Shown: in pieces, positions 1 to 25,859 of the stretch
Position numbering within the stretch: the stretch's first letter is position 1
How the letters are laid out: each line of letters starts with the position of its first letter
From: Candidatus Delongbacteria bacterium
GTDB lineage: Bacteria; UBA4055
Direction: 5' to 3'
Assembly (NCBI GenBank): GCA_016937995.1
Contig: JAFGVM010000024.1
Location: forward strand, 309 to 64,308
Length of the DNA stretch: 64,000 nt
The notes under the pieces: model-generated
The model's database searches: none
Seen by the model: only the letters and a program-made list of their open reading frames with translations
Told to the model about the DNA's origin: nothing
Translations under genes and position numbers: made by a program

Positions 1-260
1 TCCTTGGGATCCATATCTCTTCGCAATATACCCGCTTCCTCTAAAGATGCTACAATTCTTGTCACTCCCCCTGATGTAATATTCAAGCGTTCAGCCAAAT
101 CTTTAACCGATAAAATATCTGCATCAAAATATTGTTTTAAGCAATTTAGTTCTGAACAGGTGACTTTTAATTTTGCTGCGATCTTTTTATCCTTGAATTG
201 ACAATTGATCTTCATCATATTCATTATTTGAGATATTATAGCTATTTTATTTTTATCCAT
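1..260 (-). CDS. MarR-family winged-helix regulator, 5' part (gene runs off left edge)
   Basis: Hand translation from ATG at 260: MDKNKIAIISQIMNMMKINCQFKDKKIAAKLKVTCSELNCLKQYFDADILSVKDLAERLNITSGGVTRIVASLEEAGILRRDMDPK. By hand count 57/86 residues are identical to the MarR ORF at 24045-24530. Track ORF 4..201(+) is its antisense shadow. Confidence 0.8.
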   Translation of the reverse strand, partial: MDKNKIAIISQIMNMMKINCQFKDKKIAAKLKVTCSELNCLKQYFDADILSVKDLAERLNITSGGVTRIVASLEEAGILRRDMDPK

Positions 261-288: not shown

Positions 289-317
289 AATTTATTGACA
301 CTCTCAACTATTGTCAA
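289..317 (-). promoter_or_regulatory. Sigma70-type promoter / putative MarR operator of the left MarR paralog
   Basis: Minus strand reads TTGACA (317-312), a 17-nt spacer, then TAAATT (294-289), about 30 nt before the ATG at 260. The spacer holds the inverted repeat TTGACA-N11-TGTCAA. The sequence is nearly identical to 24557-24585. Confidence 0.55.
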
Positions 318-1219: not shown

Positions 1220-1220
1220 A

Positions 1221-1469: not shown

Positions 1470-1476
1470 ATAATTT

Positions 1477-1517
1477 AAACCGTCAGTCTTGAAGGCTGAC
1501 GGTTTATAATTTTTTCT
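1477..1517 (+). terminator. Rho-independent terminator
   Basis: Stem AAACCGTCAG (1477-1486) pairs with CTGACGGTTT (1496-1505), followed by ATAATTTTTTC. Confidence 0.7.
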
Positions 1518-1596
1518 TTGTATAAAAGTAAGAGAGTTAATGTCATTGGTTAAGAAATTGATCAGTGGAATTTAAAAAATTATAAAAGGAAACAAA

Positions 1597-1959: not shown

Positions 1960-1961
1960 GT

Positions 1962-2028
1962 CAGAAGTTAGAAGTTAGAAGTCAGAAGTTGATAACATAT
2001 CTAAAATCTAAATTCTAAAGTCTAAAAT
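1962..2028. repeat. Two blocks of 4 tandem heptamers in an intercistronic spacer
   Basis: (C/T)AGAAGT x4 at 1962-1989 and CTAAA(A/T/G)T x4 at 2001-2028. Confidence 0.7.
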
Positions 2029-2048
2029 AGTATTTGAGGTTAAATATA

Positions 2049-3787: not shown

Positions 3788-3914
3788 GGAACGCAGGGAT
3801 GCGTTCCACAGCGTCTCTTTTTTACGACCAGCAAATGGATCTCCGTATTCCCGATAAATCGGGATAAACCGATGCACGAAGATGACAAAATGTAAGGGCG
3901 TTATTTATAACGCC
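3788..3914. repeat. Cluster of three GC-rich hairpin elements (dispersed family)
   Basis: GGAACGCA-ggga-TGCGTTCC (3788-3807). TCCCGATAAATCGGGA (3849-3864), flanked by an ATGACA box at 3882-3887. GGCGTTA-ttta-TAACGCC (3897-3914). Copies of each type recur elsewhere in the window. Confidence 0.7.
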
Positions 3915-3941
3915 AACTTATTAAAAAAAAGGAGAAATAAA

Positions 3942-4280
3942 ATGAAAATAGCATTTACTACGCAGGGAACTGAATGGGATTCAAAAATGGATCCCCGATT
4001 TGGTAGAGCAGCCTGGATACTTGTATATGATGAAGATACTGACAAATTCTCATCAATAGACAACTCTGATGTTGCCGGGGAAGCTCACGGAGCCGGTCCG
4101 AGAACAGCGCAAAGATTATTCGAATTTCAACCTGATGTTTTGATCACAGGTAATGGTCCGGGTGGAAATGCGGGTACAGCTCTGAAGGAAGCAGGAATTG
4201 TTTCTTACATAGGAGCCGGAGATATGACTGTTAAAGAAGCTTTTAGTGCTTTTAAGAATAACAGTCTTAAAAAGGCATAA
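3942..4280 (+). CDS. NifX/NifB-C-terminal-like protein, paralog 2
   Basis: MKIAFTTQG...DPRFGRAAWILVYD...VLITGNGPGGNAGTAL. AAGGAGA RBS before the ATG at 3942. The track start at 3882 lies in a repeat element. Confidence 0.75.
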   Translation: MKIAFTTQGTEWDSKMDPRFGRAAWILVYDEDTDKFSSIDNSDVAGEAHGAGPRTAQRLFEFQPDVLITGNGPGGNAGTALKEAGIVSYIGAGDMTVKEAFSAFKNNSLKKA

Positions 4281-4344
4281 AAATCAATGAATTTAGAAGA
4301 TGTATATATTCTAAATAGTATAAATAAAATTAGAAGGTAACAAA

Positions 4345-5694: not shown

Positions 5695-5730
5695 TTATTT
5701 AAGATATAATATTTGTAAATCGGAGACTAA

Positions 5731-6126
5731 ATGGAATTAATAACAGCATTTGCAACTGATGACGGTAAATTATTTATGGACAGGCATTTCGGTGATGCGA
5801 AGTACTATGATATTTATAGGATTTCTGCATCTGGTATGGAGCTTATTAAAAGAATTGATAATACCACTGAAGAAGAGGAAGAAGAAATTCATGCTGATCC
5901 AAGGAAAGCTAAAGACATTTCAGGGTTACTGAAAGAAGAAAATGTACAAGTTGTTGTTTCTAAAGTTTTTGGTCCGAATATTAAAAGGATAAAGAAAAAT
6001 TTCGTTTGTGTCGTTATGGAGAAAGAAAAAGAAATTTTTGATAGTATCGCGAAAATGCAAAGTTTTTTTGACATTATTGTTAGGGAATGGGAAAAAGGTG
6101 AAGACAGATTGATCTTTAAAATTTAA
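5731..6126 (+). CDS. NifX/NifB-C-terminal-like protein, paralog 3
   Basis: DRHFGDAKYYDIY...VQVVVSKVFGPNIKRI, with an acidic insert TTEEEEEEIH. Confidence 0.65.
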   Translation: MELITAFATDDGKLFMDRHFGDAKYYDIYRISASGMELIKRIDNTTEEEEEEIHADPRKAKDISGLLKEENVQVVVSKVFGPNIKRIKKNFVCVVMEKEKEIFDSIAKMQSFFDIIVREWEKGEDRLIFKI

Positions 6127-6139
6127 TTCAGGTGACAAA

Positions 6140-6583
6140 ATGAAAACTAAAGTCGGTATTATAATTTGTGACCGGTATAAAAGTTGTGCCGGTGGAAAAT
6201 GCTTTAGATCTTTACAGGAAAGAGATGGGGCATTCAGTATTTATCCTAAAGAAGAGGATGTTCAAATAGTTGGATATACTTCTTGCGGTGGTTGTCCCGG
6301 TGGGAATATTGAATATACTCCTGAAGAAATGATCAAGAACGGGGCAAATGTAATTCATCTTGCAACAGGAATGGTTGTCGGATATCCTCCATGCCCCTTT
6401 ATTGATCATTTTAGAAAATTTATTACTGAAAAATATGGAATAAAAGTTATTGTGGGGACTCATCCGATACCTGAGAAATATTATAAGACTCATCATGAAC
6501 TGGGTACATGGAATTCCCCTGAATGGCAGGAGATGATATCTCTTGTTTTACCTGATCAAAAAACCAGATTAAAGTACGATTAA
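6140..6583 (+). CDS. CGGC-domain protein
   Basis: Contains CDRYKSCAGGKC...YTSCGGCPGG. The CGGC signature and many conserved Cys/His fit the PF08821-type family. Confidence 0.8.
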   Translation: MKTKVGIIICDRYKSCAGGKCFRSLQERDGAFSIYPKEEDVQIVGYTSCGGCPGGNIEYTPEEMIKNGANVIHLATGMVVGYPPCPFIDHFRKFITEKYGIKVIVGTHPIPEKYYKTHHELGTWNSPEWQEMISLVLPDQKTRLKYD

Positions 6584-12372: not shown

Positions 12373-12397
12373 AAAAAATAGCCCCAAATGGAGCTAT
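12373..12397 (-). terminator. Rho-independent terminator ending the Mbx-like operon
   Basis: Minus strand reads AATAGCTCC-attt-GGGGCTATT followed by TTTTTT. Confidence 0.6.
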
Positions 12398-12413
12398 TAG
12401 AAGTTAGATGTAG

Positions 12414-12510: not shown

Positions 12511-12957
12511 TTATATATTGATCCCGTAAGGATTTTGAATATATTCCCTGAGTTCTTTCACTTCAGTCTCTGACTGCTCAAGAACCTGTTTTAGAACATC
12601 ACCGATGGATAATATTCCAATTAGCTTTCCATCTTCAACTACAGGAAGATGCCTGACTCTCTTGTTGATCATCACATCCATTGCATAGCTTAATCTTTCA
12701 TCTTTAGTTGCAATGATGAGATCCTCTTTCGGAGTCATAATATCTTTGATCTTCATTGTTTCAGGATGACCGTCACATTTGTAAAGAACATCTCTCTCAG
12801 TTACGATACCCTGAAGTTTTGAACTGCCGTCAGTAACAACTAAAGATCCAACTCTATGTTTTCCGAATAACTCAACCGCTTCTTTTGCAGTACTGTTAAT
12901 ATCGATATTAAAAGTCTCTGTACTTTGTTTCTTCTTTAGTAAATCTGTTAATTTCAT
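12511..12957 (-). CDS. CBS-pair domain protein
   Basis: Two CBS motifs (VGSLVVTDG..LQGIVTERDV and VRHLPVVEDGKLIGILSIGDV). It is the last gene of the Mbx-like operon, 14 nt after the previous stop. Confidence 0.85.
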   Translation of the reverse strand: MKLTDLLKKKQSTETFNIDINSTAKEAVELFGKHRVGSLVVTDGSSKLQGIVTERDVLYKCDGHPETMKIKDIMTPKEDLIIATKDERLSYAMDVMINKRVRHLPVVEDGKLIGILSIGDVLKQVLEQSETEVKELREYIQNPYGINI

Positions 12958-12971
12958 ATCACATCTCCTGT

Positions 12972-14765
12972 TTATTTACTGCTCAAATATTCATCTATAC
13001 CTTTTGCTGCAGTATGACCGTTTGCAATACCGTTGATAACATCAGGACCTTTTATAATATCTCCACCAACGAATAACCAAGGAAGTGATGATTGATATTT
13101 TTCATTAACAACAATCCTGCCTCTATCGCTGAATTCAAGTTTATCTTTAATAGATTCTAGGTAAGATAAGTCCATACCCTGACCGATTGATTCAACAACC
13201 ATATCTGCCGGGAAGAATTTCTTTTGAGCTTCATCAAATTTAGGACTGAATCTTCCTTCTTCATCGAATACTGAAAGACATTTAACAACATTTAGACCTG
13301 TTACTTTACCGTTTTCAATTACAATCTCTTTCGGTCCCCATCCGGGATCAATGATACATTTTTCTTCTCTTGCTTCAACAACCTCTTCCCTGTCAGCAGG
13401 CATAATATCTTCAGTCTCAAGTGAAGTTGCAGTCACATCTACCTTACCATATTTTTTATTCTGCAGTCTTGCTAACGATCTGGTGATATCCATCGCAACA
13501 TTACCACCACCGATAACAACTACTTTTTTATCAACGCGGATCTCATTTCCAAGAGATATCTCTCTCAGAAGATCAGTTGCAAAGTAAACATTCTCATGTT
13601 CAGAACCCGGTATTCTTGTACTTCTACCAAGGTGCAAACCTGTGCCTGAGAAGACCGCATCATAATCTTGTTCAAGTTGTTCTATTGTAATATCTTTACC
13701 TATACGAACATTATATTCTATCTCGACACCGCAGGATAAAATATAGTTAATATCTTTATCGATCTGGTCGTAAGGAAGACGATATTCAGGAATACCGTAT
13801 CTCATCATTCCACCTGCAGCAGGAAGTGCTTCAAATATCTTAATTGCATATCCCATTCTTGATAAGTAATAAGCAGCTGAAAGGCCTGAAGGTCCTGAAC
13901 CTATTATTGCTACTTTTTTACTCTTTGGAGTGATCTCTAAGCCTCGTTCAAGAACTTCTTTATATTTACTCTCAGGAACTTGATCAGCGATATATCTTTT
14001 TAACCAACGAATAGATAAAGGTTCCCCTTTGTGACCGATCGCACAGACAGTTTCACACCTATGAGTACATATTCTACCACATATCTCCGGCAATGGATTA
14101 GTTTCATACATTATTCTGAGACCTTCTTCCATATCGTCATTTCTGATAGCTTTGATATATTCAGGGATAGCCATATGAGCAGGACAAGTTGCAGTACAAA
14201 GGCCACAATCAATACATCTGTCCGCTTCCGCTTCCGCCTGTTCTTTAGAATAACCTTTTACGAATTCAATGAATGATTTATCCCTTTCTTCAGGATGAAG
14301 CTCAGCCATGTCAACTCTATCGTAATTGTTAAGATCATAATTTTTAGGTTTAGTCCACCCAAGTTCATTATTATCCCACTCTTTTTTGTCATATCCGGGA
14401 ATAAATCTGAAAACATCCGGATCAGAATCGATCCAGGTATATTCGTTAGATAAAGTCAGAGAATTTGTCGAACAAACATCAACACATAAAGCACACCAGC
14501 AACACCTGCCGTAATCAACCATTGGCCTTAATCCACTGTCACCGTCTTTAGTTTCAATACCTTCAACAGGAACCATATCTATAGCAGCATTCTGACAAAT
14601 CTCTTCGCATGCTCCACAACCAATACATTTATCCAGCTCGTTTTTGTGGAATCCTCTATATCTTGGAGCACCCGGTCTGTCATTGAACGGATCTTTAACA
14701 GTAACCGGATCCTTAAATACTTTCTTCCAAGCTAAAAATGGTGATAATACATCTTTTATACTCAT
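12972..14765 (-). CDS. Fusion of a NuoI/MbxN-like 2x[4Fe-4S] ferredoxin with a GltD/SudA/NfnB-like NAD(P)H-FAD oxidoreductase
   Basis: N-terminal part: PRYRGFHKNELDKCIGCGACEEIC...YGRCCWCALCVDVC (NuoI-type). The rest: DRCIDCGLCTATCP...NPLPEICGRICTHRCETVC...KVAIIGSGPSGLSAAYYL...AAGGMMRYGIPEYRLP...VVVIGGGNVAMD...FVGGD (GltD-type). Confidence 0.85.
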   Translation of the reverse strand: MSIKDVLSPFLAWKKVFKDPVTVKDPFNDRPGAPRYRGFHKNELDKCIGCGACEEICQNAAIDMVPVEGIETKDGDSGLRPMVDYGRCCWCALCVDVCSTNSLTLSNEYTWIDSDPDVFRFIPGYDKKEWDNNELGWTKPKNYDLNNYDRVDMAELHPEERDKSFIEFVKGYSKEQAEAEADRCIDCGLCTATCPAHMAIPEYIKAIRNDDMEEGLRIMYETNPLPEICGRICTHRCETVCAIGHKGEPLSIRWLKRYIADQVPESKYKEVLERGLEITPKSKKVAIIGSGPSGLSAAYYLSRMGYAIKIFEALPAAGGMMRYGIPEYRLPYDQIDKDINYILSCGVEIEYNVRIGKDITIEQLEQDYDAVFSGTGLHLGRSTRIPGSEHENVYFATDLLREISLGNEIRVDKKVVVIGGGNVAMDITRSLARLQNKKYGKVDVTATSLETEDIMPADREEVVEAREEKCIIDPGWGPKEIVIENGKVTGLNVVKCLSVFDEEGRFSPKFDEAQKKFFPADMVVESIGQGMDLSYLESIKDKLEFSDRGRIVVNEKYQSSLPWLFVGGDIIKGPDVINGIANGHTAAKGIDEYLSSK

Positions 14766-14802
14766 GTTAATCCTCTATATAAAAACTTTCTATTCTTGGT
14801 TT

Positions 14803-14879
14803 AGAGTTTTGAGTTGTTGGTTTTGAGTTATTGGGAACTTATCCTCACAACTCACAACCCGCAACTCACAACTATCTCT
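14803..14879. repeat. Long imperfect hairpin built from heptamer repeats (TTTTGAG / CTCACAA) in an intercistronic spacer
   Basis: The left arm agagttttgagttgttggttttgagttattggg is approximately complementary to the right arm cctcacaactcacaacccgcaactcacaactatctct. It overlaps the stop codon of the NuoD-like gene. Confidence 0.6.
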
Positions 14880-16050
14880 CAATTTCCGGTGGGCATGTAG
14901 CTAATGATACCATCAACGATGAAACATCTGATATATTAGCGTTTACCAATATTTTTTCAAGTAACACCATTGCTGAATTATAACTTGGTCCTCTAAGATT
15001 TATTCTTCTAGGGTATTCAGTACCGTCAGTTACCATATAGAAACCGTATTCACCTCTGGATGATTCTATTCTTTTGTAAGTTTCACCTTTAGGTATTTTC
15101 CAATGAAGAACATTCGGTGTCTTGGCTCTGATCTCACCTTTTTCCGGCATTTTAGCCATGATCTGCCTTATAAGATCTACTGACGCTTGAAGATCATGCC
15201 ATCTTACCCTTGATCTTGCATAAATATCTGAATCTTTCTCAGTATGAGGTTCAAAGTCTAATTTATCATATTTCAAATACGGATAATCTTTTCTGACATC
15301 TCTCATTATTCCAGCTGCTCTGGCATTAGGACCAACAACACTGTATTTATCGATCCAATCCTTTTCAATTACTCCAACACCTTTTGTTCTCTTCTTGAAA
15401 ACAGCATTACTGAACATCAAATTATCTATATCAACGACAAATTCATCAATTTTTTTTAATACTTCTTCCATTCTTTCTTTGAATCCGGAAGGTAATAGTC
15501 CTCTAACTCCACCAGGTGCAATATACATGTGATAAACCCTGCCACCTGTAAGTTCTTCAAATCTGTCCAGCATCAGGTCCCTGATATAAACACCCCACTG
15601 AACTCCCATTCCAAGACTCATAGTCCCACCTTGTCCGGGAACTCCTCTAAGCAGTATAGTTACTCTTGCCATTTCAAGCACTAATGTTCTTAGCCATTCT
15701 GCCATCTCTGGGACCTCAATACCTCCAAGTTCTTCAACAGATGCAGCAAGCAAATATTCATTAATATCAGGCTCGGGAACGCACATTCTGATGCAGATAG
15801 GAAAACACTGGATGAATTTTCTTCTTTCCATCAATTTTTCAAAAGCTCTGTACAGATAACCTACATGTGTCTTTGATTTAATAACTTCATCACCGGAAAC
15901 TGTAAGTTCAAGTGCCATATTTCCTGTAACTCCAGGATGGTTCGGCCCTTGCCAGATCTTTACATATTTTTGGGAATCAAGATCGAAATCTAATGTTCCG
16001 TCATCTTTCATAGTAGGAAATTTTGATCTGTCTTCTTTTATATTGAACAT
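14872..16050 (-). CDS. NuoD / MbxL-like large subunit without canonical NiFe-binding motifs
   Basis: Group-4-hydrogenase/NuoD fold: HVGYLYRAFEKLME, ELTGGRVYHMYIAPGGV, SRGEYGFYMV. The L1 position reads PICIRMCVPEP, not RxCGxCxxxH. The C-terminus reads SLATCPPEIER, not DPCxxCxxR. Confidence 0.8.
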   Translation of the reverse strand: MFNIKEDRSKFPTMKDDGTLDFDLDSQKYVKIWQGPNHPGVTGNMALELTVSGDEVIKSKTHVGYLYRAFEKLMERRKFIQCFPICIRMCVPEPDINEYLLAASVEELGGIEVPEMAEWLRTLVLEMARVTILLRGVPGQGGTMSLGMGVQWGVYIRDLMLDRFEELTGGRVYHMYIAPGGVRGLLPSGFKERMEEVLKKIDEFVVDIDNLMFSNAVFKKRTKGVGVIEKDWIDKYSVVGPNARAAGIMRDVRKDYPYLKYDKLDFEPHTEKDSDIYARSRVRWHDLQASVDLIRQIMAKMPEKGEIRAKTPNVLHWKIPKGETYKRIESSRGEYGFYMVTDGTEYPRRINLRGPSYNSAMVLLEKILVNANISDVSSLMVSLATCPPEIER

Positions 16051-16081
16051 CTACTGTCCTCTAATTTTGTTTTATTATTAT

Positions 16082-16120
16082 GTGCTGTGAGACGTTGCGG
16101 GGCAACGTCTCTACGAGCAC
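16082..16120. repeat. Strong GC-rich hairpin element between the nuoC-like and nuoD-like genes
   Basis: GAGACGTTGC-ggg-GCAACGTCTC (16089-16111), extended by GTGCT/AGCAC. It shares GCAACGTCTCTAC with 24032-24044 and TGTGAGACG with 56412-56420. Confidence 0.75.
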
Positions 16121-16684
16121 CTAACCCTGATCCGGATACAATTTTGATTTCATGTATTCCTTTGTATCATAACTCTTCCTTCCTTCTCTCGGGAAGAAAT
16201 TATCTGTAGCATATTTCAATGTATCAAAATCTCTTCTCATAGGTGGGATATCATCCCAGTCTTCCAGTACAAAATCATCATTAACACCGGGACTGCCGGG
16301 AAAATCGATGCCGAATAATTCTTTAATTTCTCTCTGATCTGTTTGTGCATGTATCCATAGATGATGAATAGAATCCATAACAGGATTATCTCTGTCAATA
16401 TCAACTCGGATAGCAATATCATATTTGTTTACAGGATGATTTAAAATGTATGTCAGCTGAAATTTGTTCTCTTCCAGCCAGTCAACACTTGACAGCATTA
16501 TCAAATGTGTAAAACCTTCAAGCTCTTTCAGATAATTCAGAATATCGACAAGTAATTTTTTCCCGATAGAAAAAAACAGCAGATCATCCCTTTTCTGAAG
16601 AACATCCGTGATCTCATATTTACTTTTTATCTTTTCTAATATTTCATTCATATCTTTTAATCCTATTTTAATTCCTATATCCAT
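16121..16684 (-). CDS. NuoC / MbxK-like subunit
   Basis: LTYILNHP...DIAIRVDI...FGIDFPGSP...DWDDIPPMRRDF is typical of the 30-kDa NuoC family. An alternative start is at 16651. Confidence 0.8.
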   Translation of the reverse strand: MDIGIKIGLKDMNEILEKIKSKYEITDVLQKRDDLLFFSIGKKLLVDILNYLKELEGFTHLIMLSSVDWLEENKFQLTYILNHPVNKYDIAIRVDIDRDNPVMDSIHHLWIHAQTDQREIKELFGIDFPGSPGVNDDFVLEDWDDIPPMRRDFDTLKYATDNFFPREGRKSYDTKEYMKSKLYPDQG

Positions 16685-16814
16685 ATAATCCCAAAATTGC
16701 TTTAAACGAAGATTTACAAGGAAGAGTGATATTACTTCGAAATGGAGCTTGGTTAACCCAAGTGACTTGAGAAGGAATTCACTCTGACGAAGTAAATCAA
16801 AGTTTAAAAAATTT
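16685..16814 (-). other. 130-nt structured spacer inside the operon (crossing complementary segments)
   Basis: On the plus strand AGAGTGA (16723-29) is complementary to TCACTCT (16779-85). TTACTTCG (16732-39) is complementary to CGAAGTAA (16788-95). A CTTGG-ttaac-CCAAG hairpin lies between them. Confidence 0.4.
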
Positions 16815-17459
16815 TTACCAGTTGTAATCGGGCATATCCCATCCTTTGATTACCTTCTTTTGATTAGCCTTATACCAGTCAAATCTCTCAGCATAATCAT
16901 TTGCACCTTCGGCTTTACCTGCTCTGATCCTTTTCTTCAGCTCTACAAACCCTGAAAGAATTGCTTCAGGTCTTGGCATACATCCCGTGATATAAACATC
17001 TACCGGAATATAGTGATCCAGTCTGTTGATAGTATTAAAACTATCATAATACATTCCACCGTTAATCGTACAACTGCCTAATGCTATTATATACTTAGGA
17101 CCCTGCATTTGCTCATAAGCTCTGATAACTCTTTTCAAAGTTTTCACAGCCAAATATCCTGAAATAATAAACACACCTGCTTGTCTTGGAGTAGGTCTCA
17201 TCTGAACACCGTATCTGAACATATCAAATCTTGGAGTTGTCAAAGGCGGTAATTCAATACTACCACACCCTGTTCCCCATCCAAGTACCCATAGAGAATT
17301 CGATCTTGCCCAGTTGAAGAATTTTTCAAGTAACGGATGTGCAGGCTCCTGAACTTCAGGTCTTTTATCACAAAAGTATTCTTTCATCGGATCAACTGTA
17401 AATACTTCACCATCAGGTGCGGTTACAGTTCTCTTTTTTAAATCATCCATTCGAGTCAT
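16815..17459 (-). CDS. NuoB / MbxJ-like small subunit
   Basis: Contains WGTGCGSIEL, LGSCTINGG and ITGCMPRPE (NuoB-type motifs). Only one Cys is present where NuoB has CC. Confidence 0.85.
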   Translation of the reverse strand: MTRMDDLKKRTVTAPDGEVFTVDPMKEYFCDKRPEVQEPAHPLLEKFFNWARSNSLWVLGWGTGCGSIELPPLTTPRFDMFRYGVQMRPTPRQAGVFIISGYLAVKTLKRVIRAYEQMQGPKYIIALGSCTINGGMYYDSFNTINRLDHYIPVDVYITGCMPRPEAILSGFVELKKRIRAGKAEGANDYAERFDWYKANQKKVIKGWDMPDYNW

Positions 17460-17474
17460 TTATTTAAACCTCTA

Positions 17475-18395
17475 TTAGTTAATATATGTCGCATAAATCA
17501 CACCTAAAACACCAATTACTAAAGGTACTTTCACGAACCATGCCACTGATTGATCTACTCTGTATCTCGGAAATACTACTCCAACGAACACTGTGGTAAA
17601 GTATATGAAGAAAGTTTTTACTATAAATTCTATCCAGTTCGTAGCTCCACCAAAGAATAAATTCATAAAAAGTGCAGATTCTACAATATGAAGGATAGCT
17701 CTGTTGGATTGAAGCATTCCAAGATAAGTAGAGTGATATTCAGTTGGTGGACCGATCGGTATTTCCTGAGGTGCCATTACTACATTAAAAGGAGCATGTC
17801 GCATAATTCCGAGAAAAGATAACATTCCTGCTAGAGTCGCAACGGGATTCTGAAATAATGTCCAGTGAAGGATTCCACCTTGTTGTGCTGCTACTATATT
17901 ATAAACTGATAATGTTTGATATTGAATTGCAATAGCAATTATAGCGAGTGTAAATGAAATCTCAACAGTCGTAAATTGTGCAAGCCCTCTACTGATCCCG
18001 ATAGTAGAATTAGGATGTCCCGCTTCTCCGGCACCTAAAGCCATTCCAAGCATTCCGAAAAATTGGAAGTACATTAGTAATACAATATCACCTGTGAATG
18101 AAAAATTCTTAAAATATATTGAACCGAATATCATAGGCATGAATAAGAAAAGTCCTATTCCGCCACCCAATCTGAAAATTGGTCCAAGATAAAACATAAT
18201 ACCATGAGTTATTTGTGATCTTTTAGCCAAATTTTTAATAATGTCAAAATATGACTGATATACCGGAATCCCATATCTTCCTGCTACTCTGGCAACTATC
18301 TTCCTCATAACCCCTGACTGAAGAAGCCCGTAGTTAAAAACTATGAATAAACCTAATAGGGAATATAGTATTCTTGATGTAAGTGTCAATTCCAT
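17475..18395 (-). CDS. NuoH / MbxM-like membrane subunit
   Basis: Polytopic 306-aa protein at the NuoH/HyfC/MbhM-type operon position. It overlaps the upstream gene by 1 nt. Confidence 0.75.
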   Translation of the reverse strand: MELTLTSRILYSLLGLFIVFNYGLLQSGVMRKIVARVAGRYGIPVYQSYFDIIKNLAKRSQITHGIMFYLGPIFRLGGGIGLFLFMPMIFGSIYFKNFSFTGDIVLLMYFQFFGMLGMALGAGEAGHPNSTIGISRGLAQFTTVEISFTLAIIAIAIQYQTLSVYNIVAAQQGGILHWTLFQNPVATLAGMLSFLGIMRHAPFNVVMAPQEIPIGPPTEYHSTYLGMLQSNRAILHIVESALFMNLFFGGATNWIEFIVKTFFIYFTTVFVGVVFPRYRVDQSVAWFVKVPLVIGVLGVIYATYIN

Positions 18396-21300
18396 TAAAA
18401 TATCCCTCCGTTAAGAATAAAGTAGAAAAATACGACAAAACCGATTATGTGCATAATATATACCTGTGCATTACCGTTATAGAATTTTCTGAAGAAATCT
18501 GAACTCGAATGAAAAAGATCAGTTATAAAATTCCAGAAATTTGTTACTAGTGGCAAGACAAGAAAACCAAGAGCTTTTCTGTAATGTGAGAACATATTAT
18601 ATGAAAAATGTGCAGTTTGAGGACTTTCAGGTCTTTCGGCAGAATATACAATGTTGAACATTTCAACTTTTGTTGCTTTCCTGCTTGCAAATAATAGGAA
18701 TCCTAATAAAACAGCGAACATGACACATACTATTATCATTATATAGAACGGATCCCAAACACCGAATAATTTACCATTTACAAAAGTTGATGCGGCATCA
18801 CCATTCCAGACAACAGTGTTCTCAGGTAATATTTCTTTAAAATATAAACCTACTTTCTCCAGTATCATCCTTGGTTTTGATGATAAGACCATCAGAGTAG
18901 CTATTATCAAATATTGAGGTATCAAATACCAAACTGATACTTCTGTCATTTTTCTATGCTTATCTTTTATAGGTCCTAAGAAAATCGAATATATTAGTTT
19001 GAAAAGATATAAGAAAGCTACAACTCCAGAGAAGGCAATAATTGCACCCTGGAAATACCATCCTTTTAAGATAAAAGCGTTATAAAGAAGCCATTTTCCA
19101 CCGAATCCTGCCAATGGAGGAACACCTGACAATGCAATTATACCGATAAGAACTGAAATAAAAGACATCGGCATTTTTTTTATCAAACCACCCATTTCAT
19201 ACATTTTATGAGTTTTGAGTTTTAATACTATCGCACCTACTGCAAGGAATAATAAGGCTTTATACAAGAAATGAGTGATCGAATACCAAATTGCTGCCAG
19301 CCAGCCTACATTTGTCATTATTGCTAGAGCAAATAAGATATAACCTAACTGAGCTATACTTGAATAAGCCAGTAATTTCTTCGCATCTTCCTGGAATGAA
19401 GCTATTAAATTTCCAAGTAAAGCTGTAATTGCTCCTACCCAGCCTAATATGTAAAATAGATTTGAAACATCGTTATTTCTCATTGCTATGAATAGAATTA
19501 TCAGTCCGAATACTCCGGCTTTTAGTAGTACTGCAGAAACCATTGGAGAAACATCACTTTCTGCTTCAGCGTGAGCTCCCGGCAACCAGATATGAAGTCC
19601 GATAGAAGCAGTTTTTGTCATAAAACCCAGTGCAAGAAGTATAAATACCATAGTTGCATAAATATGAACCTCCGACAATGAAGTTAATAAAATACTTCCG
19701 GTTTCAGCTCCGGATAAAGCAAATCCGAATAAGATCAGATAAGCACCACCTGCAGAGAATAATATATAACTCAATGCGTGAGACATTGATCTTTTACCTC
19801 TCAGGATCAGGAAGTACGAACCTGCTGTCATTATTTCCCAGGCAAAAAAGAATTGAAAGAAAGTTTCAGCTTCGATCAATCCGATCAGTCCTACATACAT
19901 CATAGCAGCAACAGGATAGAATCCTATTCTCTTCCCTTTTACGCTATAACCGGGAATAAATGTTAATATTCCACCGACTAAGAATATCAAAGCGAATATC
20001 AGCTTTAAAGTATCTAAACCGGGAACAAGTATATATCCATAGTATGATACGGCGATCATAACCAGTGTATTCTTAATATATACTGGTAAGAAGTCTATTA
20101 AGAATAGTATTCCCACAAATGCTAAAGGTATGAAATTAATTGACAGACCAGCATCAAATGATCTGGTAATATAGAACCCTGCGACATAAAGCAATAGAGT
20201 AACAATATAGACCGGATGTAACTGATGTTGAGGTTTTTCTACTTTTTCTTCACTGTCTTCCAGTTTAAGAATGTAACCGAACCATCTGAATAAATAAAGG
20301 ACTTCAAGTATCGATGCTAATATCACCAGACTTATCCATAAGAACGATCCATTCTCAGCCAGTATCATTACTAAAGACCATTTTGCGGCTAAAGATGGAA
20401 ATGGAGGGAAACCCATCAGTGCTAAGATAAATGTTCCGAACATGAAAATCAGAATAGGATGTTTCTTTATCTTTACCCAGTCTTGAATTTTCTCAGCTTT
20501 TACAATTCCTGACAACCAGAACAAACCTGCTTTAGCTAAGAAATGACTGATAAGTAATCCAAAGAATATTTTCTCAAAATTATCACCGAGTATATCTTTT
20601 GATGCTATTACAAATACCAATAATCCGATCTGACCTATCGAAGAATAACCTAACAATCTATTCGTACTCTTCTGCATAATTGCGAAAAGGTTTGATACTA
20701 CAAAAGTAAGCACACCGATTATAACGATCATCTTTGTTAGATCAATTGATGCTAAAGGAAGTACTTTGTATAGAACAAATAACAAAGCCGTTGCAGATGT
20801 TGCTGAGATCATTGCAGAAATGCCTGTATCAGATCCTTCATAAACATCTAAGGCCCAACCGTTAGCAGGGAAAACTTTTAATTCAATTACAACAGAGAAT
20901 ATCAGTATGAATACGCCAACAAATAATATTTGTGATGAACCTGCAGCTGATACAGCAGCGATCATTCCATCTAAGTTCAAAGTTCCTGTTTTAGAATATA
21001 TAAGGATTATACCAAGAAGTAAAAATACTGATGCAATCCCACCTGCAATCATATATTTAAATCCTGCAGACAGAGATTTTAATCTTAAGTCCATACCTAT
21101 AAGGATATACGTTGCAATTGATGTAATTTCCAGGAAAACAAAAATATTGAATATATCTCTGGTCAATACTAATCCGTTCATTCCGAGTATGAAGAGTAAA
21201 AATACTACTAATGCCTGAATTCCGTTCTCTGCAAAATATTTAAACGAATAGATCGCTCCAAGTAAAGCACCAAAATTGATCAATGTAATTAGAACCGCTT

Positions 21301-21538
21301 CATTTAACCCCATCTGTAAATTGATCGACATCGGAGGTTTAAATCCGGCAGTGAAGATCTGTACAGCTTGTTGACCATCGATCAGAAAAGCTGACAACCA
21401 TTGGTAACTGATCGCAGTAACTGCTATTATTCCTAAAAAGAATATTGTTACTGTTACTTTTATTCCGGCCTTATTTATTGACGGCAATAAAAATCCAAGA
21501 CCTAGTAAGATTGCTATTATATATATTGGATTTACCAT
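18395..21538 (-). CDS. Fused double MrpD/NuoN-type antiporter-like subunit (MbxH+H' equivalent), 1047 aa
   Basis: There are two proton-conducting-transporter modules. The first has GWALDVYEGSDTG...LLGYSSIGQIG. The second has WLPGAHAEAESDVSPMVSAVLLKAG...LLAYSSIAQLG. Confidence 0.85.
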   Translation of the reverse strand: MVNPIYIIAILLGLGFLLPSINKAGIKVTVTIFFLGIIAVTAISYQWLSAFLIDGQQAVQIFTAGFKPPMSINLQMGLNEAVLITLINFGALLGAIYSFKYFAENGIQALVVFLLFILGMNGLVLTRDIFNIFVFLEITSIATYILIGMDLRLKSLSAGFKYMIAGGIASVFLLLGIILIYSKTGTLNLDGMIAAVSAAGSSQILFVGVFILIFSVVIELKVFPANGWALDVYEGSDTGISAMISATSATALLFVLYKVLPLASIDLTKMIVIIGVLTFVVSNLFAIMQKSTNRLLGYSSIGQIGLLVFVIASKDILGDNFEKIFFGLLISHFLAKAGLFWLSGIVKAEKIQDWVKIKKHPILIFMFGTFILALMGFPPFPSLAAKWSLVMILAENGSFLWISLVILASILEVLYLFRWFGYILKLEDSEEKVEKPQHQLHPVYIVTLLLYVAGFYITRSFDAGLSINFIPLAFVGILFLIDFLPVYIKNTLVMIAVSYYGYILVPGLDTLKLIFALIFLVGGILTFIPGYSVKGKRIGFYPVAAMMYVGLIGLIEAETFFQFFFAWEIMTAGSYFLILRGKRSMSHALSYILFSAGGAYLILFGFALSGAETGSILLTSLSEVHIYATMVFILLALGFMTKTASIGLHIWLPGAHAEAESDVSPMVSAVLLKAGVFGLIILFIAMRNNDVSNLFYILGWVGAITALLGNLIASFQEDAKKLLAYSSIAQLGYILFALAIMTNVGWLAAIWYSITHFLYKALLFLAVGAIVLKLKTHKMYEMGGLIKKMPMSFISVLIGIIALSGVPPLAGFGGKWLLYNAFILKGWYFQGAIIAFSGVVAFLYLFKLIYSIFLGPIKDKHRKMTEVSVWYLIPQYLIIATLMVLSSKPRMILEKVGLYFKEILPENTVVWNGDAASTFVNGKLFGVWDPFYIMIIVCVMFAVLLGFLLFASRKATKVEMFNIVYSAERPESPQTAHFSYNMFSHYRKALGFLVLPLVTNFWNFITDLFHSSSDFFRKFYNGNAQVYIMHIIGFVVFFYFILNGGIF

Positions 21539-21894
21539 TTTAAGTCCTTGTAATCGTTAATTGACAATGATTTCTTCTGTTGGTATAATCTTATTACGAA
21601 GGTTAGCATCAGAGCATTTACCGCCACGCCAATAACAATAGCTGTAAGAACCAGTGCCTGAGGTACAGGATCAACTATTAACGAAGATGCCTTGCTAAGC
21701 TCTACCGCAGAGTCTAAGATAGGAGCAGTTCTTCCGTCTATAAATCCAAAAGCGACCATCACAAGCTGAACACCTGTCTCTACTATTGCTAATCCTAAAA
21801 TTATCTTTATCATATTCTTTTGGGTCAACATTCCCCAGAAACCTATCAATATGAGAGCAAATCCTGTTATATGAACTATAGTTGTTATATTCAT
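21532..21894 (-). CDS. MrpC/MnhC (NuoK-like) subunit
   Basis: 120 aa with 3 TM segments, including GLAIVETGVQLVMVAF. The operon position fits MrpC. Confidence 0.75.
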   Translation of the reverse strand: MNITTIVHITGFALILIGFWGMLTQKNMIKIILGLAIVETGVQLVMVAFGFIDGRTAPILDSAVELSKASSLIVDPVPQALVLTAIVIGVAVNALMLTFVIRLYQQKKSLSINDYKDLKW

Positions 21895-22592
21895 TCAAGC
21901 TCCCCCTTCATATTGTCCAATATACTCGCCAGTTCAGTTCCTACTTTCAATCCTACAAGTGTATAGATCAGTGGTATAGTTCCAGCACTTAAAATAGTTC
22001 CAAAAGTTCCAAGTGGTAAAATTCTATTATCCAGGAAGTTATCTGCTCCGAGTATAACGAGACCTAAAACACCGATAAGGACATAGAAGATTCCCGAAAA
22101 TGATTCTATTAAAACAAATACTTTATGATTGATCTTAAATGAACTATCTGCCAAGAACATTAACATTACAGCAGATGCTATAGCTGCTCCACCCTGAAAT
22201 CCACCACCAGGTGATAAATGCCCATTTATGAATATATATGCACCAAACATTGTTATTATTGGTACCAACAGTTTTGAACCTGTCTTCAATATTTCACTGG
22301 CTGCTCTATTCTTTATTCCTGAATCATTTTTCTTTTTCTTTCTTCTGAGTAATAAAGCAATACCAGTTCCTGCCATAAATAATACAGTAACTTCACCCAG
22401 TGTATCTAAGCCTCTATAAGTTACAACAATTGCAGTAACCAGATTCATTGCTCCAAGATCTGATGCTCCCTGTTCTGCATAAGTCTTTGCAACACCTGTC
22501 AGATCATAATTCGGTGCAACATTCGTCGCTACTTTTAATAATATGAAAAACAGTGATATTACTAATAATAAAGGTATCAGTCTTTTAATCAT
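21891..22592 (-). CDS. MrpB/MnhB-domain subunit
   Basis: NLVTAIVVTYRGLDTLGEVTVLF is the MnhB signature. ATG at 22592 is preceded by GGAGGA. The track start at 22628 overlaps the previous gene more deeply. Confidence 0.75.
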   Translation of the reverse strand: MIKRLIPLLLVISLFFILLKVATNVAPNYDLTGVAKTYAEQGASDLGAMNLVTAIVVTYRGLDTLGEVTVLFMAGTGIALLLRRKKKKNDSGIKNRAASEILKTGSKLLVPIITMFGAYIFINGHLSPGGGFQGGAAIASAVMLMFLADSSFKINHKVFVLIESFSGIFYVLIGVLGLVILGADNFLDNRILPLGTFGTILSAGTIPLIYTLVGLKVGTELASILDNMKGELE

Positions 22593-22845
22593 TTTCTTCC
22601 TCCACATCTTTTGTTTTGTGAAGTGCATATAAAAATATCAAAGTAGATAAACCTGCACCGATAGCAGCTTCTGTCATTGCAACATCAGGTGCCTGCATCA
22701 ATAGATACAATATACTTGCAAATAAACTTACTACTCCTACTGCGATGATCGAAGATATCAAATCCTTCACATGCATTGCTAATACTGCCGCAATGATCAT
22801 TGCTAAACCCATCAGTATGAAAATGCCTTGTTGTAATTCCATCAA
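22585..22845 (-). CDS. MrpB N-terminal-like (DUF4040/MbhD-like) subunit
   Basis: 86 aa with 3 TM segments, including LLMQAPDVAMTEAAIGAGLST. There is a 4-nt overlap with the mrpG-like gene. Confidence 0.7.
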   Translation of the reverse strand: MMELQQGIFILMGLAMIIAAVLAMHVKDLISSIIAVGVVSLFASILYLLMQAPDVAMTEAAIGAGLSTLIFLYALHKTKDVEEEND

Positions 22846-23186
22846 TCTACCTCCACTTCGGTACTTTCTTTCTCTTTCAGCTTATCAGCTACAGAACCTT
22901 TTGTCAAAGGAATTCCTTTGAAATGTGCTGCTCTAGCTAATGCATGACTTGAAATAGGATTTGTTAAAGCTATGAACATTATTATTACGAGTATCTGACC
23001 GATCCATTCGTAATGACAGATTCCGATTCCTAATAATGTTAAAATTGTTCCTAAAGTAGTTGCTTTAGTTCCTGCCTGCATCCTGTTGTAAAGATCTGGC
23101 ATTCTAAATACTCCCAAAGCTCCGAGAAATAAGAATATTGAACCTATTAATGTTATTATTGATCCTAAAATTCTGTACCATTCCAT
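22842..23186 (-). CDS. MrpG/MnhG subunit
   Basis: Contains GALGVFRMPDLYNRMQAGTKATTLG...ISSHALARAA. Confidence 0.8.
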   Translation of the reverse strand: MEWYRILGSIITLIGSIFLFLGALGVFRMPDLYNRMQAGTKATTLGTILTLLGIGICHYEWIGQILVIIMFIALTNPISSHALARAAHFKGIPLTKGSVADKLKEKESTEVEVD

Positions 23187-23187
23187 T

Positions 23188-23457
23188 TTATAGCCCCCCT
23201 TCTAAATAACGGGCTACTGCGACTACACCTATGAAACTTAAGATAGCATAGACCATTCCTACATCCAGGAATATCACCCTTTCTGACATACACGCTATCA
23301 GTGTAATTAATGAAATGGAAATCACTGTAAATGTATCCAGCGCTACGACTCTATCTGCCATACTTGGACCTATGATCAGTCTCAGTGTCGCAAGTATTAT
23401 CCCTGCTGATACAAAATAAGTTGATATTTGTAATAATATCTCCGGTAAGTTAGCCAA
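23188..23457 (-). CDS. MrpF/MnhF subunit
   Basis: Contains LRLIIGPSMADRVVALDT...VVAVARYLE. Confidence 0.8.
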   Translation of the reverse strand: MANLPEILLQISTYFVSAGIILATLRLIIGPSMADRVVALDTFTVISISLITLIACMSERVIFLDVGMVYAILSFIGVVAVARYLEGGL

Positions 23458-23938
23458 AGATCACCTCCAGATATTTTTCGAAATTTGCCACGATTTTCTC
23501 TGTTGCTGTTTTTTCATCGATATTAGTAACATCGATCCAGTGTATATATAATATATCTTCATCTATATCTACTGTCAAAGTTCCGGGAGTTAATGTTATT
23601 GAATTTGCCAATATCATTCGACCCATTGCTGATTTCAATTTTGTTTTCACTGTAACTATCCCTGGATTGATAGGGATCTTAGGAGAAACAACTCTTCGAG
23701 CTACATCGAAATTTGCCTTTATTATTTCAATGAATAGGAATATTACATACCAGATAGAATATATCCACTTTTTGGGAGACAACATTGGTTTGAACAACGA
23801 TCTGTTATAGATAATACTGATAACTAAAGCTATGAAGGCAATTATCAATATATTATACAAATCAGTAGTACCTGTCCAAATAAAATAGAACAATGTGAGA
23901 ATCCCCGTCGAAAATATCACCTTTATAATTCTATCCAT
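23450..23938 (-). CDS. MrpE/MnhE subunit
   Basis: Contains ANSITLTPGTLTVDI..ILYIHWI. ATG at 23938 follows GAGGT. The longer track ORF (to 24076) reads through intergenic repeat elements. Confidence 0.75.
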   Translation of the reverse strand: MDRIIKVIFSTGILTLFYFIWTGTTDLYNILIIAFIALVISIIYNRSLFKPMLSPKKWIYSIWYVIFLFIEIIKANFDVARRVVSPKIPINPGIVTVKTKLKSAMGRMILANSITLTPGTLTVDIDEDILYIHWIDVTNIDEKTATEKIVANFEKYLEVIFG

Positions 23939-23967
23939 ATATACCTCTAAATCGTTATTTGTTGTTT

Positions 23968-24044
23968 TGTCATTGCGATCCCGATAAATCGGGAGTGGCA
24001 ATCTTGTTTTCGTAATTGTAAGACCTTGCAGCGCAACGTCTCTA
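23968..24044. repeat. Two hairpin elements in the MarR-mrpE spacer
   Basis: TGTCATTGCGA-[TCCCGATAAATCGGGA]-GTGGCAATC (23968-24003) and AGACcTTGC-agc-GCAAcGTCT (24021-24041), which abuts the MarR stop codon. Confidence 0.75.
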
Positions 24045-24530
24045 CTAACAATTATCGTTTCCTGACAAATTCTCACTGAATTTTTCTTTGTCCCTTTGCA
24101 ACTTTGATGACCACACTTTATTAAGAAGATTTAGACCATTATATATTGTATCCTGATCTTGTTCATTAACTTCATCAAAGAGATCTTTGCAATAATTTAT
24201 GGTTATCTTTTTTAATTCTTTAACAAATACATTTCCTTTATCGGTCAGAGTAACATTTATTCCTCTTCTGTCATCTGGGGCCATATCTCTGCGCAATAGA
24301 CCTGCTTCTTCCAAAGCAGCAACGATCCTTGTAACTCCACCGGAAGTTATATTCAATCTCTCGGCCAGATCCTTGACAGATATACTTTCTGATTCAAAAT
24401 ACTGCTTCAGACAATTTAATTCAGAGCAAGTAAGATCCATTGATCTTGCAACTTTTTTATCTTTTAATTGACAATAAAGCTTCATTGAGCTTATTATGTT
24501 TGAAATTTCGTTTACCCGACTTTGATTCAT
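24045..24530 (-). CDS. MarR-family regulator heading the Mbx-like operon
   Basis: wHTH segment SVKDLAERLNITSGGVTRIVAALEEAGLLRRDMAPDDRRGINVTLTDKG. Three N-terminal Cys (LYCQL, TCSELNC) are conserved with the paralog at 1-260. Confidence 0.85.
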   Translation of the reverse strand: MNQSRVNEISNIISSMKLYCQLKDKKVARSMDLTCSELNCLKQYFESESISVKDLAERLNITSGGVTRIVAALEEAGLLRRDMAPDDRRGINVTLTDKGNVFVKELKKITINYCKDLFDEVNEQDQDTIYNGLNLLNKVWSSKLQRDKEKFSENLSGNDNC

Positions 24531-24556: not shown

Positions 24557-24585
24557 AATTTATTGATCTGCTCAACAATTGTCAA
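24557..24585 (-). promoter_or_regulatory. Sigma70-type promoter / putative MarR operator of the Mbx-like operon
   Basis: Minus strand reads TTGACA (24585-24580), a 17-nt spacer, then TAAATT (24562-24557). By hand count 23 of 29 positions are identical to 289-317. Confidence 0.55.
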
Positions 24586-24704: not shown

Positions 24705-25859
24705 ATGGCTCACGATTCATCGAATACAGATTTTGGTAAAAATTTCAATGATCTTGATATAATCGGAAAATCCGAACGTATTAACGAGGTTGTAACTATA
24801 GTGAAAACTATAGCACCAACTGATATTTCTGTACTCATTACAGGTGAAAGTGGAACAGGTAAAGAAGTTTTTGCTAACTTGATCCATAAATTAAGTCCCA
24901 GAAAAAATGAAAAATTCATCCCTATCAACTGTGGAGCCATACCGGAGGGATTAATTGAAAGTGAACTTTTCGGTCATGAAAAAGGATCTTTTACAAGTGC
25001 ATCGGATAAAAGAAAAGGTTATTTTGAGTCTGCTGACAAAGGAACGATCTTTCTTGATGAGATAAGTGAGCTCCCTCTTGCAAGTCAGGTCAAACTTCTA
25101 CGTGTTCTGGAGAATGGTTCCTTTATGCGTGTTGGAGGTTCAACGAACATCAATGTTAATGTAAGGATCGTAGCAGCTTCAAACAAAGTTCTTGCCAGAA
25201 TGGTGGAAAAAGGTACTTTTAGAGAAGACCTTTATTTCCGTTTAAAAGCTGTTTCGATCGAATTACCTCCATTGAGAGAAAGACTTGAGGATATACCGTT
25301 ATTTGTAAGTATTTTTTCAAAATTCTCTGCAGAAAAGCACAACCGTAATCAACTTATTTTCGAAATGGATGCTATATCAGAACTTGTAAACCATCCCTGG
25401 AAAGGTAATATCAGAGAATTGAAAAATTTTGTTGATATGCTCACTGTAATGGAAACAATGAAAGTAATAAACGGTGATACTATTAGAAAATATTTCAAAG
25501 GTAGGCCGAACTCTTCAAATCTTCCCGTAAAGCTTAATAAATTTGGTGAAGAGAATGAGAGAGAACTTATTTTCAGAACTTTGCTGGAAATCAAGAACGA
25601 TCTCAACCAGATCAAAAGGTATATTTTAAAATCAGGTAAAAAAGAAATCATTTCTGACTATTCATATGAAGATGAACTTAATGGTTATTCAGATGATAAT
25701 GTTATTATAACTCCCTACGAACATGGAGACAGTGAGAAAGAGGAAATTATCTCACTTCTGAAAAAATATCGTGGCAACAGAAGAAAGACTGCTGAAGAGA
25801 TGAATATATCTGAAAGAACACTTTACCGTAAGATCACTAAACACGGGATCACTTTATGA
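24705..25859 (+). CDS. Sigma-54-dependent transcriptional activator (AAA+ plus Fis-type HTH, no N-terminal sensor domain)
   Basis: GESGTGKE Walker A. ESELFGHEKGSFTSA, where the GAFTGA loop reads GSFTSA. FLDEI Walker B. The C-terminal HTH is RRKTAEEMNISERTLYRKI. Confidence 0.85.
   Translation: MAHDSSNTDFGKNFNDLDIIGKSERINEVVTIVKTIAPTDISVLITGESGTGKEVFANLIHKLSPRKNEKFIPINCGAIPEGLIESELFGHEKGSFTSASDKRKGYFESADKGTIFLDEISELPLASQVKLLRVLENGSFMRVGGSTNINVNVRIVAASNKVLARMVEKGTFREDLYFRLKAVSIELPPLRERLEDIPLFVSIFSKFSAEKHNRNQLIFEMDAISELVNHPWKGNIRELKNFVDMLTVMETMKVINGDTIRKYFKGRPNSSNLPVKLNKFGEENERELIFRTLLEIKNDLNQIKRYILKSGKKEIISDYSYEDELNGYSDDNVIITPYEHGDSEKEEIISLLKKYRGNRRKTAEEMNISERTLYRKITKHGITL

Follow-up and report, generated by a model that had tools for sequence, protein, structure and literature searches.

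In a 64,000-nt stretch of DNA from Candidatus Delongbacteria bacterium (contig JAFGVM010000024.1; hereafter the window, to which all coordinates refer unless a locus is named), two paralogous regulators of the MarR family, here called MarR_R and MarR_L, are encoded on the reverse strand (Table 1), and the former is the first gene of an operon for an Mbx/MBS-like respiratory complex. The clade of MarR_R is a good candidate for a redox or sulfur switch that would turn on such complexes. On balance we favor reading it as a dedicated, cysteine-dependent autorepressor of Mbx/MBS-like operons, similar in action to the archaeal regulator SurR while being unrelated to it. The parts of this reading differ in strength: that MarR_R represses its own Mbx operon is very probable, that it senses through its cysteines is likely, and that sulfane sulfur is the physiological signal is a tentative proposal drawn by analogy. 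The paralogy, the conserved cysteines, the synteny and the promoter and operator architecture are observed; from these, we infer repression, cysteine sensing and the nature of the signal.

The left paralog is truncated by the window edge, and an earlier note on this DNA had proposed recovering the remainder; a protein collection search identified it as P0012, a protein of 160 amino acids encoded on the same 69,025-nt contig. The two regulators align without gaps (BLASTP, 57 of 85 residues or 67% identical, 87% positives, E 1e-42), close to the 57 of 86 counted by hand in that note, and both exceed the gathering score of Pfam family PF01047 (MarR; 47.9 bits for MarR_R and 35.3 bits for MarR_L, against 24.6). 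Identity is highest in the winged helix-turn-helix (wHTH; residues 48–96, 86%) and falls to 53% in helices a1–a2, 37% in a5–a6 and 50% in the tail. Since the DNA-reading surface is the same while the dimerization and pocket helices have diverged, the paralogs probably form separate homodimers that read one operator type, perhaps with different tuning. In a collection of 5.8 billion proteins, a word-indexed search returned only 43 close relatives (E ≤3.5e-33), mostly from metagenome-assembled genomes of Candidatus Delongbacteria, with the next matches only at E 1e-8, and an exhaustive hidden Markov model search of 1.84 billion cluster representatives returned only five at E ≤1e-30. The subfamily is therefore narrow, and it has no previous name.

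An AlphaFold2 model of MarR_R built from the family alignment (predicted local distance difference test score, pLDDT, 86.8) has the canonical six-helix MarR fold, in which a1, a5 and a6 would dimerize and a3, a4 and the beta-wing form the wHTH (helices 3–30, 35–42, 52–59, 63–75, 97–117 and 123–147; strands 79–83 and 91–95). The top 50 Foldseek matches in the PDB are all MarR-family or related winged-helix regulators (probability 1.00). No characterized subfamily stands out in the Foldseek and PDB sequence searches, which returned only generic MarR proteins (FabT, MexR, HsmR, TM0710), and the NCBIfam equivalogs (OhrR, AdcR, MarR, SlyA and others) all score far under their cut-offs, OhrR at 38.7 bits against 200.

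Both paralogs carry, as the earlier note had pointed out, three cysteines ahead of the wHTH: C20 in the motif ..C-Q-[LF]-KDKK.. and C35 and C40 in T-C-SELN-C, giving MarR_R the spacing C20-X14-C35-X4-C40 (CX14CX4C…C) with no CxxC. A fourth conserved cysteine, absent from that note, is the very last residue of the protein (C161 in MarR_R, C160 in P0012). Among the 43 close homologs, C40 is present in all, C20 in 41, the last-residue cysteine in 38 and C35 in 32, and in the 37 full-length sequences both C40 and the terminal cysteine are invariant. The terminal motif, …G-x-x-(N/S)-C-COOH, is found at the end of tails that vary in length (proteins of 152 to 161 amino acids). Position 35 is threonine or valine in 11 of the 43, and eight of these 11 have C12 instead. 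Relatives at 25–50% identity keep C20 and C40 and lack both C35 and the terminal cysteine; the C20/C40 pair is invariant in a 14-sequence alignment reaching down to 25% identity and present in most loci of the wider clade. Cysteine occupies both columns in 46 of 148 top representatives, a biased fraction, as the query profile rewards cysteine there. The earlier note had named a lack of conservation in orthologs as the finding that would speak against a thiol switch, and C20 and C40 turn out to be conserved.

In the model, C20 lies on a1, C35 caps a2, C40 lies within a2, and C114, which is specific to the nearest clade, lies on a5; the tail (148–161) has a pLDDT of about 50, dropping below 50 over the last four residues, and ends in C161. 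The core sensor is probably C20 (a1) with C40 (a2), conserved across phyla; in the Delongbacteria clade this pair is joined by C35 and by a cysteine that tips a 14-residue C-terminal tail predicted to be disordered. Cysteine is a rare residue; that it is deeply conserved at two positions and also ends a flexible tail speaks for a sensor role of the cysteines. From a hand alignment, we take C35 to occupy the position of Y40 in B. subtilis OhrR, and C20 to lie about 10 residues past the equivalent of OhrR C15 (approximately residue 10), while C30 and C62 of MexR presumably map to non-cysteine residues in MarR_R. C20 and C40 presumably fall about one residue from E24 and H42 of AdcR, which we treat as a lead and no test. 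As we assume from this alignment, C20, C35 and C40 would sit in an a1/a2 pocket where the dimerization domain meets the DNA-binding one.

The earlier note had singled out two 29-nt segments upstream of the paralogs for DNA-binding tests of the regulators. A promoter scan calls exactly these positions as sigma-70-type promoters (Table 1), and the motif was rejected as a pure operator: each segment consists of a -35 and a -10 element with one palindromic box inside, and a second box follows downstream. In an upstream alignment of 10 Delongbacteria-group promoters, CTTGACAA and TAAATT are invariant or nearly so. One group has TTGAG-N3-CTCAA as box 1 and another has TTTAC-N3-GTAAA, so that both half-sites changed together between clades (TTGA…TCAA versus TTTA…TAAA). 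Box 2 follows the consensus (A/T)TTA(C/G)-N3-GTAA(A/T) and recurs in Calditrichota, Latescibacteria and other loci, including stand-alone genes. Of 29 unique upstream regions, 23 contain a 13-bp inverted repeat no more than 75 nt from the start codon, where 500 shuffles gave 3.2 on average and never more than 8, and these repeats cluster at about -46 and -31. A matrix composed of box 1, the -10 element and box 2, with the -35 element left out, found one site per locus, always the MarR promoter; it detected no further operator across the 64-kb window and nine related loci. In silico, the regulator gene thus has the palindromic operator at its own promoter that is typical of MarR autoregulation, and the predicted box layout is that of a standard MarR autorepressor which would occlude RNA polymerase. 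A possible third box (TTGAGCAGGTAAA-like) lies approximately 16 nt past box 2 in two related loci, where it overlaps the ribosome-binding region (L014 7275–7306, L015 974–1005), and a weaker counterpart, TTAAGGTGCTAAA, is found at -13 before MarR_R.

The operon behind the MarR_R promoter begins, as the earlier note had described, with MarR_R; directly downstream of it come MnhE, MrpF, MnhG, MbhD, MbhE/MnhB, a NuoK-like subunit and a double antiporter of 1047 amino acids; NuoH-, NuoB-, NuoC- and NuoD(MbsL)-like subunits, an MbsN-NfnB fusion of 597 amino acids and a CBS protein complete it. The label "Mbx-like" proved apt, as the NuoD-like subunit is nearest to MbsL of P. furiosus (6u8y_L, E 5e-86, versus 5e-34 for the MbhL structure 6cfw_L). 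This subunit has the RxCVPEPD and C-terminal CPPxIxR (here CPPEIER) motifs of MbsL and lacks the NiFe CxxC pairs; with only C82, C86, C90 and C386 as cysteines, it is free of the four NiFe-ligating cysteines, as is MbsL. The fusion (12972–14765, reverse strand) combines an MbsN/NuoI-like N-terminus with two [4Fe-4S] clusters (6u8y_N, E 7e-23) and an NfnB/GltD-type FAD-NADPH module (5jca_L, E 6e-78), and is kept in related loci at 588–597 amino acids. This NfnB-type fusion on the MbsN-like subunit suggests that the complex exchanges electrons with NAD(P)H, instead of or besides ferredoxin.

All Delongbacteria-group loci with enough flanking sequence (L002/L004, L006/L007, L009=L010, L011–L015) have the MarR gene immediately followed by the same operon, and one contig carries tandem MarR-Mbx units (L006, then L002). 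Of two alignments of wider relatives, the very divergent A3 varied too much to serve in scanning genomes, and the closer A4 was used; the scan with Calditrichota-type relatives gave 23 locus records, of which L066 and L067 repeat the contigs of L018 and L017, and the 21 distinct loci are those from which a MarR gene was extracted. The scanned loci belong to Calditrichota, Latescibacteria, Krumholzibacteriota, Caldisericaceae and unclassified metagenome-assembled genomes, and in 15 of the 21 the MarR gene lies directly upstream of an Mbx operon. The exceptions lie beside other redox genes or regulators. Among the stand-alone members of this wider clade, L017/L018 have a sensor kinase, a TonB receptor and a regulator of the Rrf2 type nearby, L053 lies immediately before an FAD/CCG (HdrD-like) oxidoreductase, and L069 lies behind a multiheme cytochrome and an iron-sulfur (Fe-S) flavoprotein; these surroundings are redox-related without deciding the matter. 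Furthermore, a large Ignavibacteria clade (L071–L074; P0084, P0195–P0313) of MarR proteins with 150–152 amino acids keeps the equivalent of the C20/C40 pair, in the motifs …C-x-E-K-E… and …A-E-F-R-C-L-R…, and is encoded away from Mbx, stand-alone and always behind an Impact_N (YigZ-like) gene. These proteins may be global redox regulators, and their stand-alone position beside Impact_N led us to reject the two-cysteine Ignavibacteria members as a guide to the signal.

We propose that the MarR dimer binds the 13-bp palindromes, TTnA(C/G)-N3-(G/C)TnAA, and that binding to box 1, in the spacer of the sigma-70-type promoter, and to box 2, over the -10 element and the start, would block RNA polymerase. 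As the regulator gene is the first cistron, repression would be self-limiting. Oxidation of the thiols to a disulfide, a persulfide or a polysulfide bridge would then shift the DNA-binding lobes, release the operator and induce the complex, and of two paralogous Mbx operons, each would be headed by one of the MarR paralogs. Besides a general thiol oxidant, the candidates include sulfane sulfur or polysulfide, which would be the most plausible oxidant, as MBS acts on substrates of this class. A bolder version, which we consider rather unlikely as it stands, makes the protein a non-homologous bacterial counterpart of SurR, in which the cysteine at the tip of the tail takes up sulfane sulfur and bridges to the a1/a2 cysteines; the bridged sulfur would switch on the MBS-type, NAD(P)H-linked complexes for sulfur respiration in Delongbacteria, and a simpler two-cysteine form would play the same role in Calditrichota, Latescibacteria and Krumholzibacteriota. 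A cysteine on a swinging C-terminal arm is reminiscent of the arm cysteines of DsrC/TusE.

Several findings weigh against a cysteine-based sulfur switch. C35 and the terminal cysteine are missing from the wider Mbx-linked clade, two Mbx-linked members of which (L052 and L055) also lack C40, and hence there is no universal multi-cysteine chemistry. Many Ignavibacteria relatives with the cysteine pair stand alone in housekeeping contexts, so that the pair is not specific to Mbx. The cysteines do not lie at the characterized sensor positions of OhrR, MexR or SarZ. Sulfur reduction by bacterial Mbx-like complexes is itself inferred, and the MbsN subunit is here fused to an NADPH module. Finally, four cysteines per protomer would suit a site for a metal or an Fe-S cluster equally well.

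This last point leads to an alternative that we regard as unlikely, namely that a metal ion or an Fe-S cluster is bound by the four cysteines, or by C20 and C40 of both protomers; the protein would then sense Fe-S or metal status, O2 or redox poise, with the repressor architecture unchanged. Such a site would accord with the four conserved cysteines of the Delongbacteria clade and the invariance of C40 and the terminal cysteine in its full-length members, with the abundance of Fe-S proteins in the regulated complex and among the neighboring genes, and with the existence of metal-binding MarR proteins such as AdcR (E24, H42, H108 and H112, on a1/a2/a5) and LdtR (Cys28, Thr43). However, the wider Mbx-linked clade does without the third and fourth cysteines, C35 gives way to threonine or valine in about a quarter of the close homologs (the 11 noted above), and neither family model of a metal sensor recognizes the protein: AdcR_fam (NF038251) scores 29 bits against 175, with the His/Glu ligand set absent, and Rrf2 (PF02082, the IscR/NsrR type) scores 19.1 bits against 30, covering only the helix-turn-helix. 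To our knowledge, no Fe-S-binding MarR protein has been characterized.

Less likely again is that the cysteines are not the sensor, and that MarR_R is an ordinary MarR repressor with an organic or nucleotide ligand, or an autoregulator without an effector. Most MarR proteins are responsive to small ligands that sit between the dimerization domain and the domain that binds DNA (PMC11211675), the paralogs differ most in a5–a6, which line the ligand pocket, and the CBS-domain protein that ends the operon, a typical nucleotide sensor, could carry a metabolic signal. Yet the persistence of C20 and C40 to 25–30% identity and across phyla is hard to explain if they have no function, and the last-residue cysteine is kept despite the variation in tail length. 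Improbable in our view is the regulon model of the earlier note, in which the paralogs would co-control the Mbx operon and the DUF134/CoADR-like cluster as SurR does mbs and nsr: although the divergent genes MarR_L and DUF134 have an intergenic region of 170 bp in common, the flavoprotein of the cluster resembles CoA-disulfide reductases (4fx9, E 4e-48) and nsr and mbx of T. maritima are co-induced by elemental sulfur (S0; PMC9431562), DUF134 has its own promoter (381–409), 74 nt or more from the nearest box, no operator-like site occurs in or before the cluster or elsewhere in the 64 kb, genes of the cluster are never found within 10 kb of MarR in Delongbacteria-group loci, and left-type MarR proteins elsewhere always head an Mbx operon, with varied upstream neighbors.

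The divergent position of MarR_L beside a cluster with a CoADR/NSR-like flavoprotein, as distinct from its control of that cluster, was borne out. The cluster (381–6583, forward strand) encodes, in order, DUF134, DUF5320, a NifX/NifB-like protein, two MinD/ParA-type Fer4 ATPases, a NifX-like protein, the flavoprotein, another NifX-like protein and CGGC. The flavoprotein, of the CoADR/NSR/Nox type, has an active-site-like C43 in PCGIPY, and its best solved match is an NADH oxidase (6pfz, E 5e-49), the CoA-disulfide reductase being second. We also noted that the DUF134 protein has a zinc-ribbon-like, cysteine-rich C-terminus, and that the cluster has the appearance of a conserved cluster of anaerobes.

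Two lines of evidence suggest instead that MarR_L heads a second Mbx operon, past the left edge of the window. Left-type MarR proteins elsewhere (P0014, P0017 and L011) are all at the head of Mbx operons, and the MbhD-MnhG-MrpF module (approximately 22580–23175) appears to be doubled in the source metagenome run X1: there the assembly graph splits into contigs of 116–247 nt, representing two versions about 95% identical, each at about 16x, the genome depth (summed, about 30–35x), between clean flanking contigs of 9.3 kb and 1.8 kb at about 16x. Another, almost identical copy of the module in the genome would account for this, in line with the type-A/type-B pair of relatives. Neither an exact-protein look-up for P0012 nor an exact 60-mer scan of JGI metagenome contigs found the DNA left of the window; the Logan contig with the left edge ends 271 nt past the window, which is some 48 nt beyond the stop codon of MarR_L; and a search for a type-B MnhE found a single MnhE on the 69,025-nt contig, the window's own P0327. 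Two operon types exist in the Delongbacteria lineage. Their core subunits are 44–65% identical while the small Mrp-type subunits are 93–95% identical, which suggests that the latter have been homogenized by gene conversion.

MarR_R and the Mbx-like operon are probably co-transcribed, as no terminator is predicted between MarR_R and MnhE. The mechanically called MnhE reading frame starts at a GTG at 24076 and overlaps the MarR_R stop codon (extra part 23939–24076); at 208 amino acids it is probably too long, because the orthologs and the database entry P0327 have 162. The true start is probably the ATG at 23938, giving 162 amino acids, with GAGG as its ribosome-binding site and a distance of 106 nt between MarR and MnhE. 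This spacer contains a hairpin, CCCGATAAATCGGG (23980–23993), with no T-run behind it. Further along the operon, the 1047-residue protein (18395–21538, reverse strand; 1047–1052 amino acids in relatives) has two Proton_antipo_M domains, and two antiporter-like subunits (MbsH/H'-like) thus appear to be fused into one protein. In locus L007 (12953–14402) the type-A double antiporter is cut to 342 amino acids and followed by a Y1 (IS200-like) transposase and the contig end. Metatranscriptomes of the same study contained no transcripts of the operon; one marine-sediment RNA run contained three short fragments (MbhE/MnhB, MnhG and the MrpF-MnhE junction) at identities from >99% to about 94%, a result with no bearing on regulation. 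Divergent from MarR_R, a sigma-54 activator (24705–25859, forward strand) comprises an AAA+ domain, a lid and a Fis-type helix-turn-helix; its AAA+ domain begins at residue 19, leaving no N-terminal receiver or sensor domain, and the gene is not conserved beside MarR in related loci.

Table 1. Regulator genes, promoters, putative operator boxes and the Mbx/MBS-like operon in the window
Feature	Coordinates	Strand	Description
MarR_L	1..260	-	N-terminal 86 codons of P0012; rest beyond left window edge
MarR_L operator box 2 (putative), ATTACATCGTGAA	279..291	-	
MarR_L promoter, sigma-70-type	289..317	-	-35 TTGACA 317-312, 17-nt spacer, -10 TAAATT 294-289; promoter scan
MarR_L operator box 1 (putative), TTGAGAGTGTCAA	295..307	-	
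Intrinsic-terminator-like hairpin with T-run	12377..12398	-	After the CBS gene; likely operon end
Type-A Mbx/MBS-like operon	12511..23938	-	13 genes, MnhE to CBS; Pfam
MarR_R	24045..24530	-	161-amino-acid four-cysteine MarR-family regulator; first gene of the type-A Mbx-like operon
MarR_R operator box 2 (putative), ATTAGTTGGTAAA	24547..24559	-	Overlaps -10 end and likely transcription start
MarR_R/operon promoter, sigma-70-type	24557..24585	-	-35 TTGACA 24585-24580, 17-nt spacer, -10 TAAATT 24562-24557; promoter scan
MarR_R operator box 1 (putative), TTGAGCAGATCAA	24563..24575	-	13-bp inverted repeat in promoter spacer

Bacterial Mbx/MBS-like complexes are widespread in uncultured sediment phyla, and a conserved, cysteine-bearing first-gene repressor with a predicted operator offers a testable handle on the signals to which these complexes respond, and hence on their role. 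In T. maritima, mbx and nsr are induced by S0, and mbx also by thiosulfate, with the regulator not named (PMC9431562). A literature search did not find a link between MarR and mbx, the matches for the two terms being the author name Marreiros or MBX drug names, nor did it find Delongbacteria or Caldithrix paired with Mbx. If the bolder, sulfane-sulfur version of our reading is true, the S0-responsive regulator that is missing for bacterial mbx operons would be found in this protein. MarR_R would also add to the MarR family a cysteine architecture, an a1/a2 pair with a cysteine as the terminal residue, unlike those of OhrR, MexR and SarZ. If the cysteines are irrelevant, MarR_R is one more operon-specific MarR autorepressor. 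Compared with known systems, it is a regulator of a familiar kind that accompanies a little-studied respiratory complex.

Cysteine-bearing MarR proteins commonly sense reactive oxygen species and sulfane sulfur through disulfide or persulfide formation (PMC11211675). MarR_R shares its fold, its size and the dimeric wHTH with OhrR, MexR, SarZ/MgrA and the sulfane-sulfur sensor MarR of E. coli, thiol-based sensors in which palindromes overlap the regulator's own promoter, the helices of the dimer interface have conserved cysteines on them or close by, and disulfide or persulfide formation relieves repression. It differs from them in the positions of its cysteines, in having four, one of which is at the C-terminal tip, and in its predicted target, which is an energy-conserving respiratory complex and not a detoxification or efflux gene. 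AdcR/ZitR and LdtR have their sensing residues on a1/a2 (and a5), at the domain junction, the region of C20, C40 and C114 in MarR_R; however, the ligands of AdcR are mainly histidine and glutamate and those of LdtR are the Cys28 and Thr43 mentioned above, while MarR_R has a multi-cysteine set.

The operon itself is like that of P. furiosus MBS (formerly MBX, PDB 6u8y) in its 13-gene layout of Mrp and NuoBCDHI types, and differs in the MbsN-NfnB fusion, the fused antiporters, the terminal CBS protein and the host, which is bacterial and mesophilic. In Thermococcales, reduced SurR represses the mbs promoter, from which it is released when S0 oxidizes its CxxC to a disulfide (PMC12162507). As a Cys-bearing wHTH protein with predicted sites over an mbs (mbx)-type promoter, MarR_R could follow the same logic, and the analogy drawn in the earlier note is reasonable to that extent. 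It does not extend to kinship, as SurR is an archaeal protein with two ArsR-type wHTH domains, a CxxC and a GTTn3AAC site, acts as a global activator and repressor and is encoded away from mbs, whereas MarR_R has a MarR fold of 161 residues without CxxC, is encoded by the first gene of its operon and has a predicted TTnAS-N3-STnAA operator with no other site detected in the loci scanned. MarR_R is thus best described as a candidate analogue of SurR, and not as its homologue.

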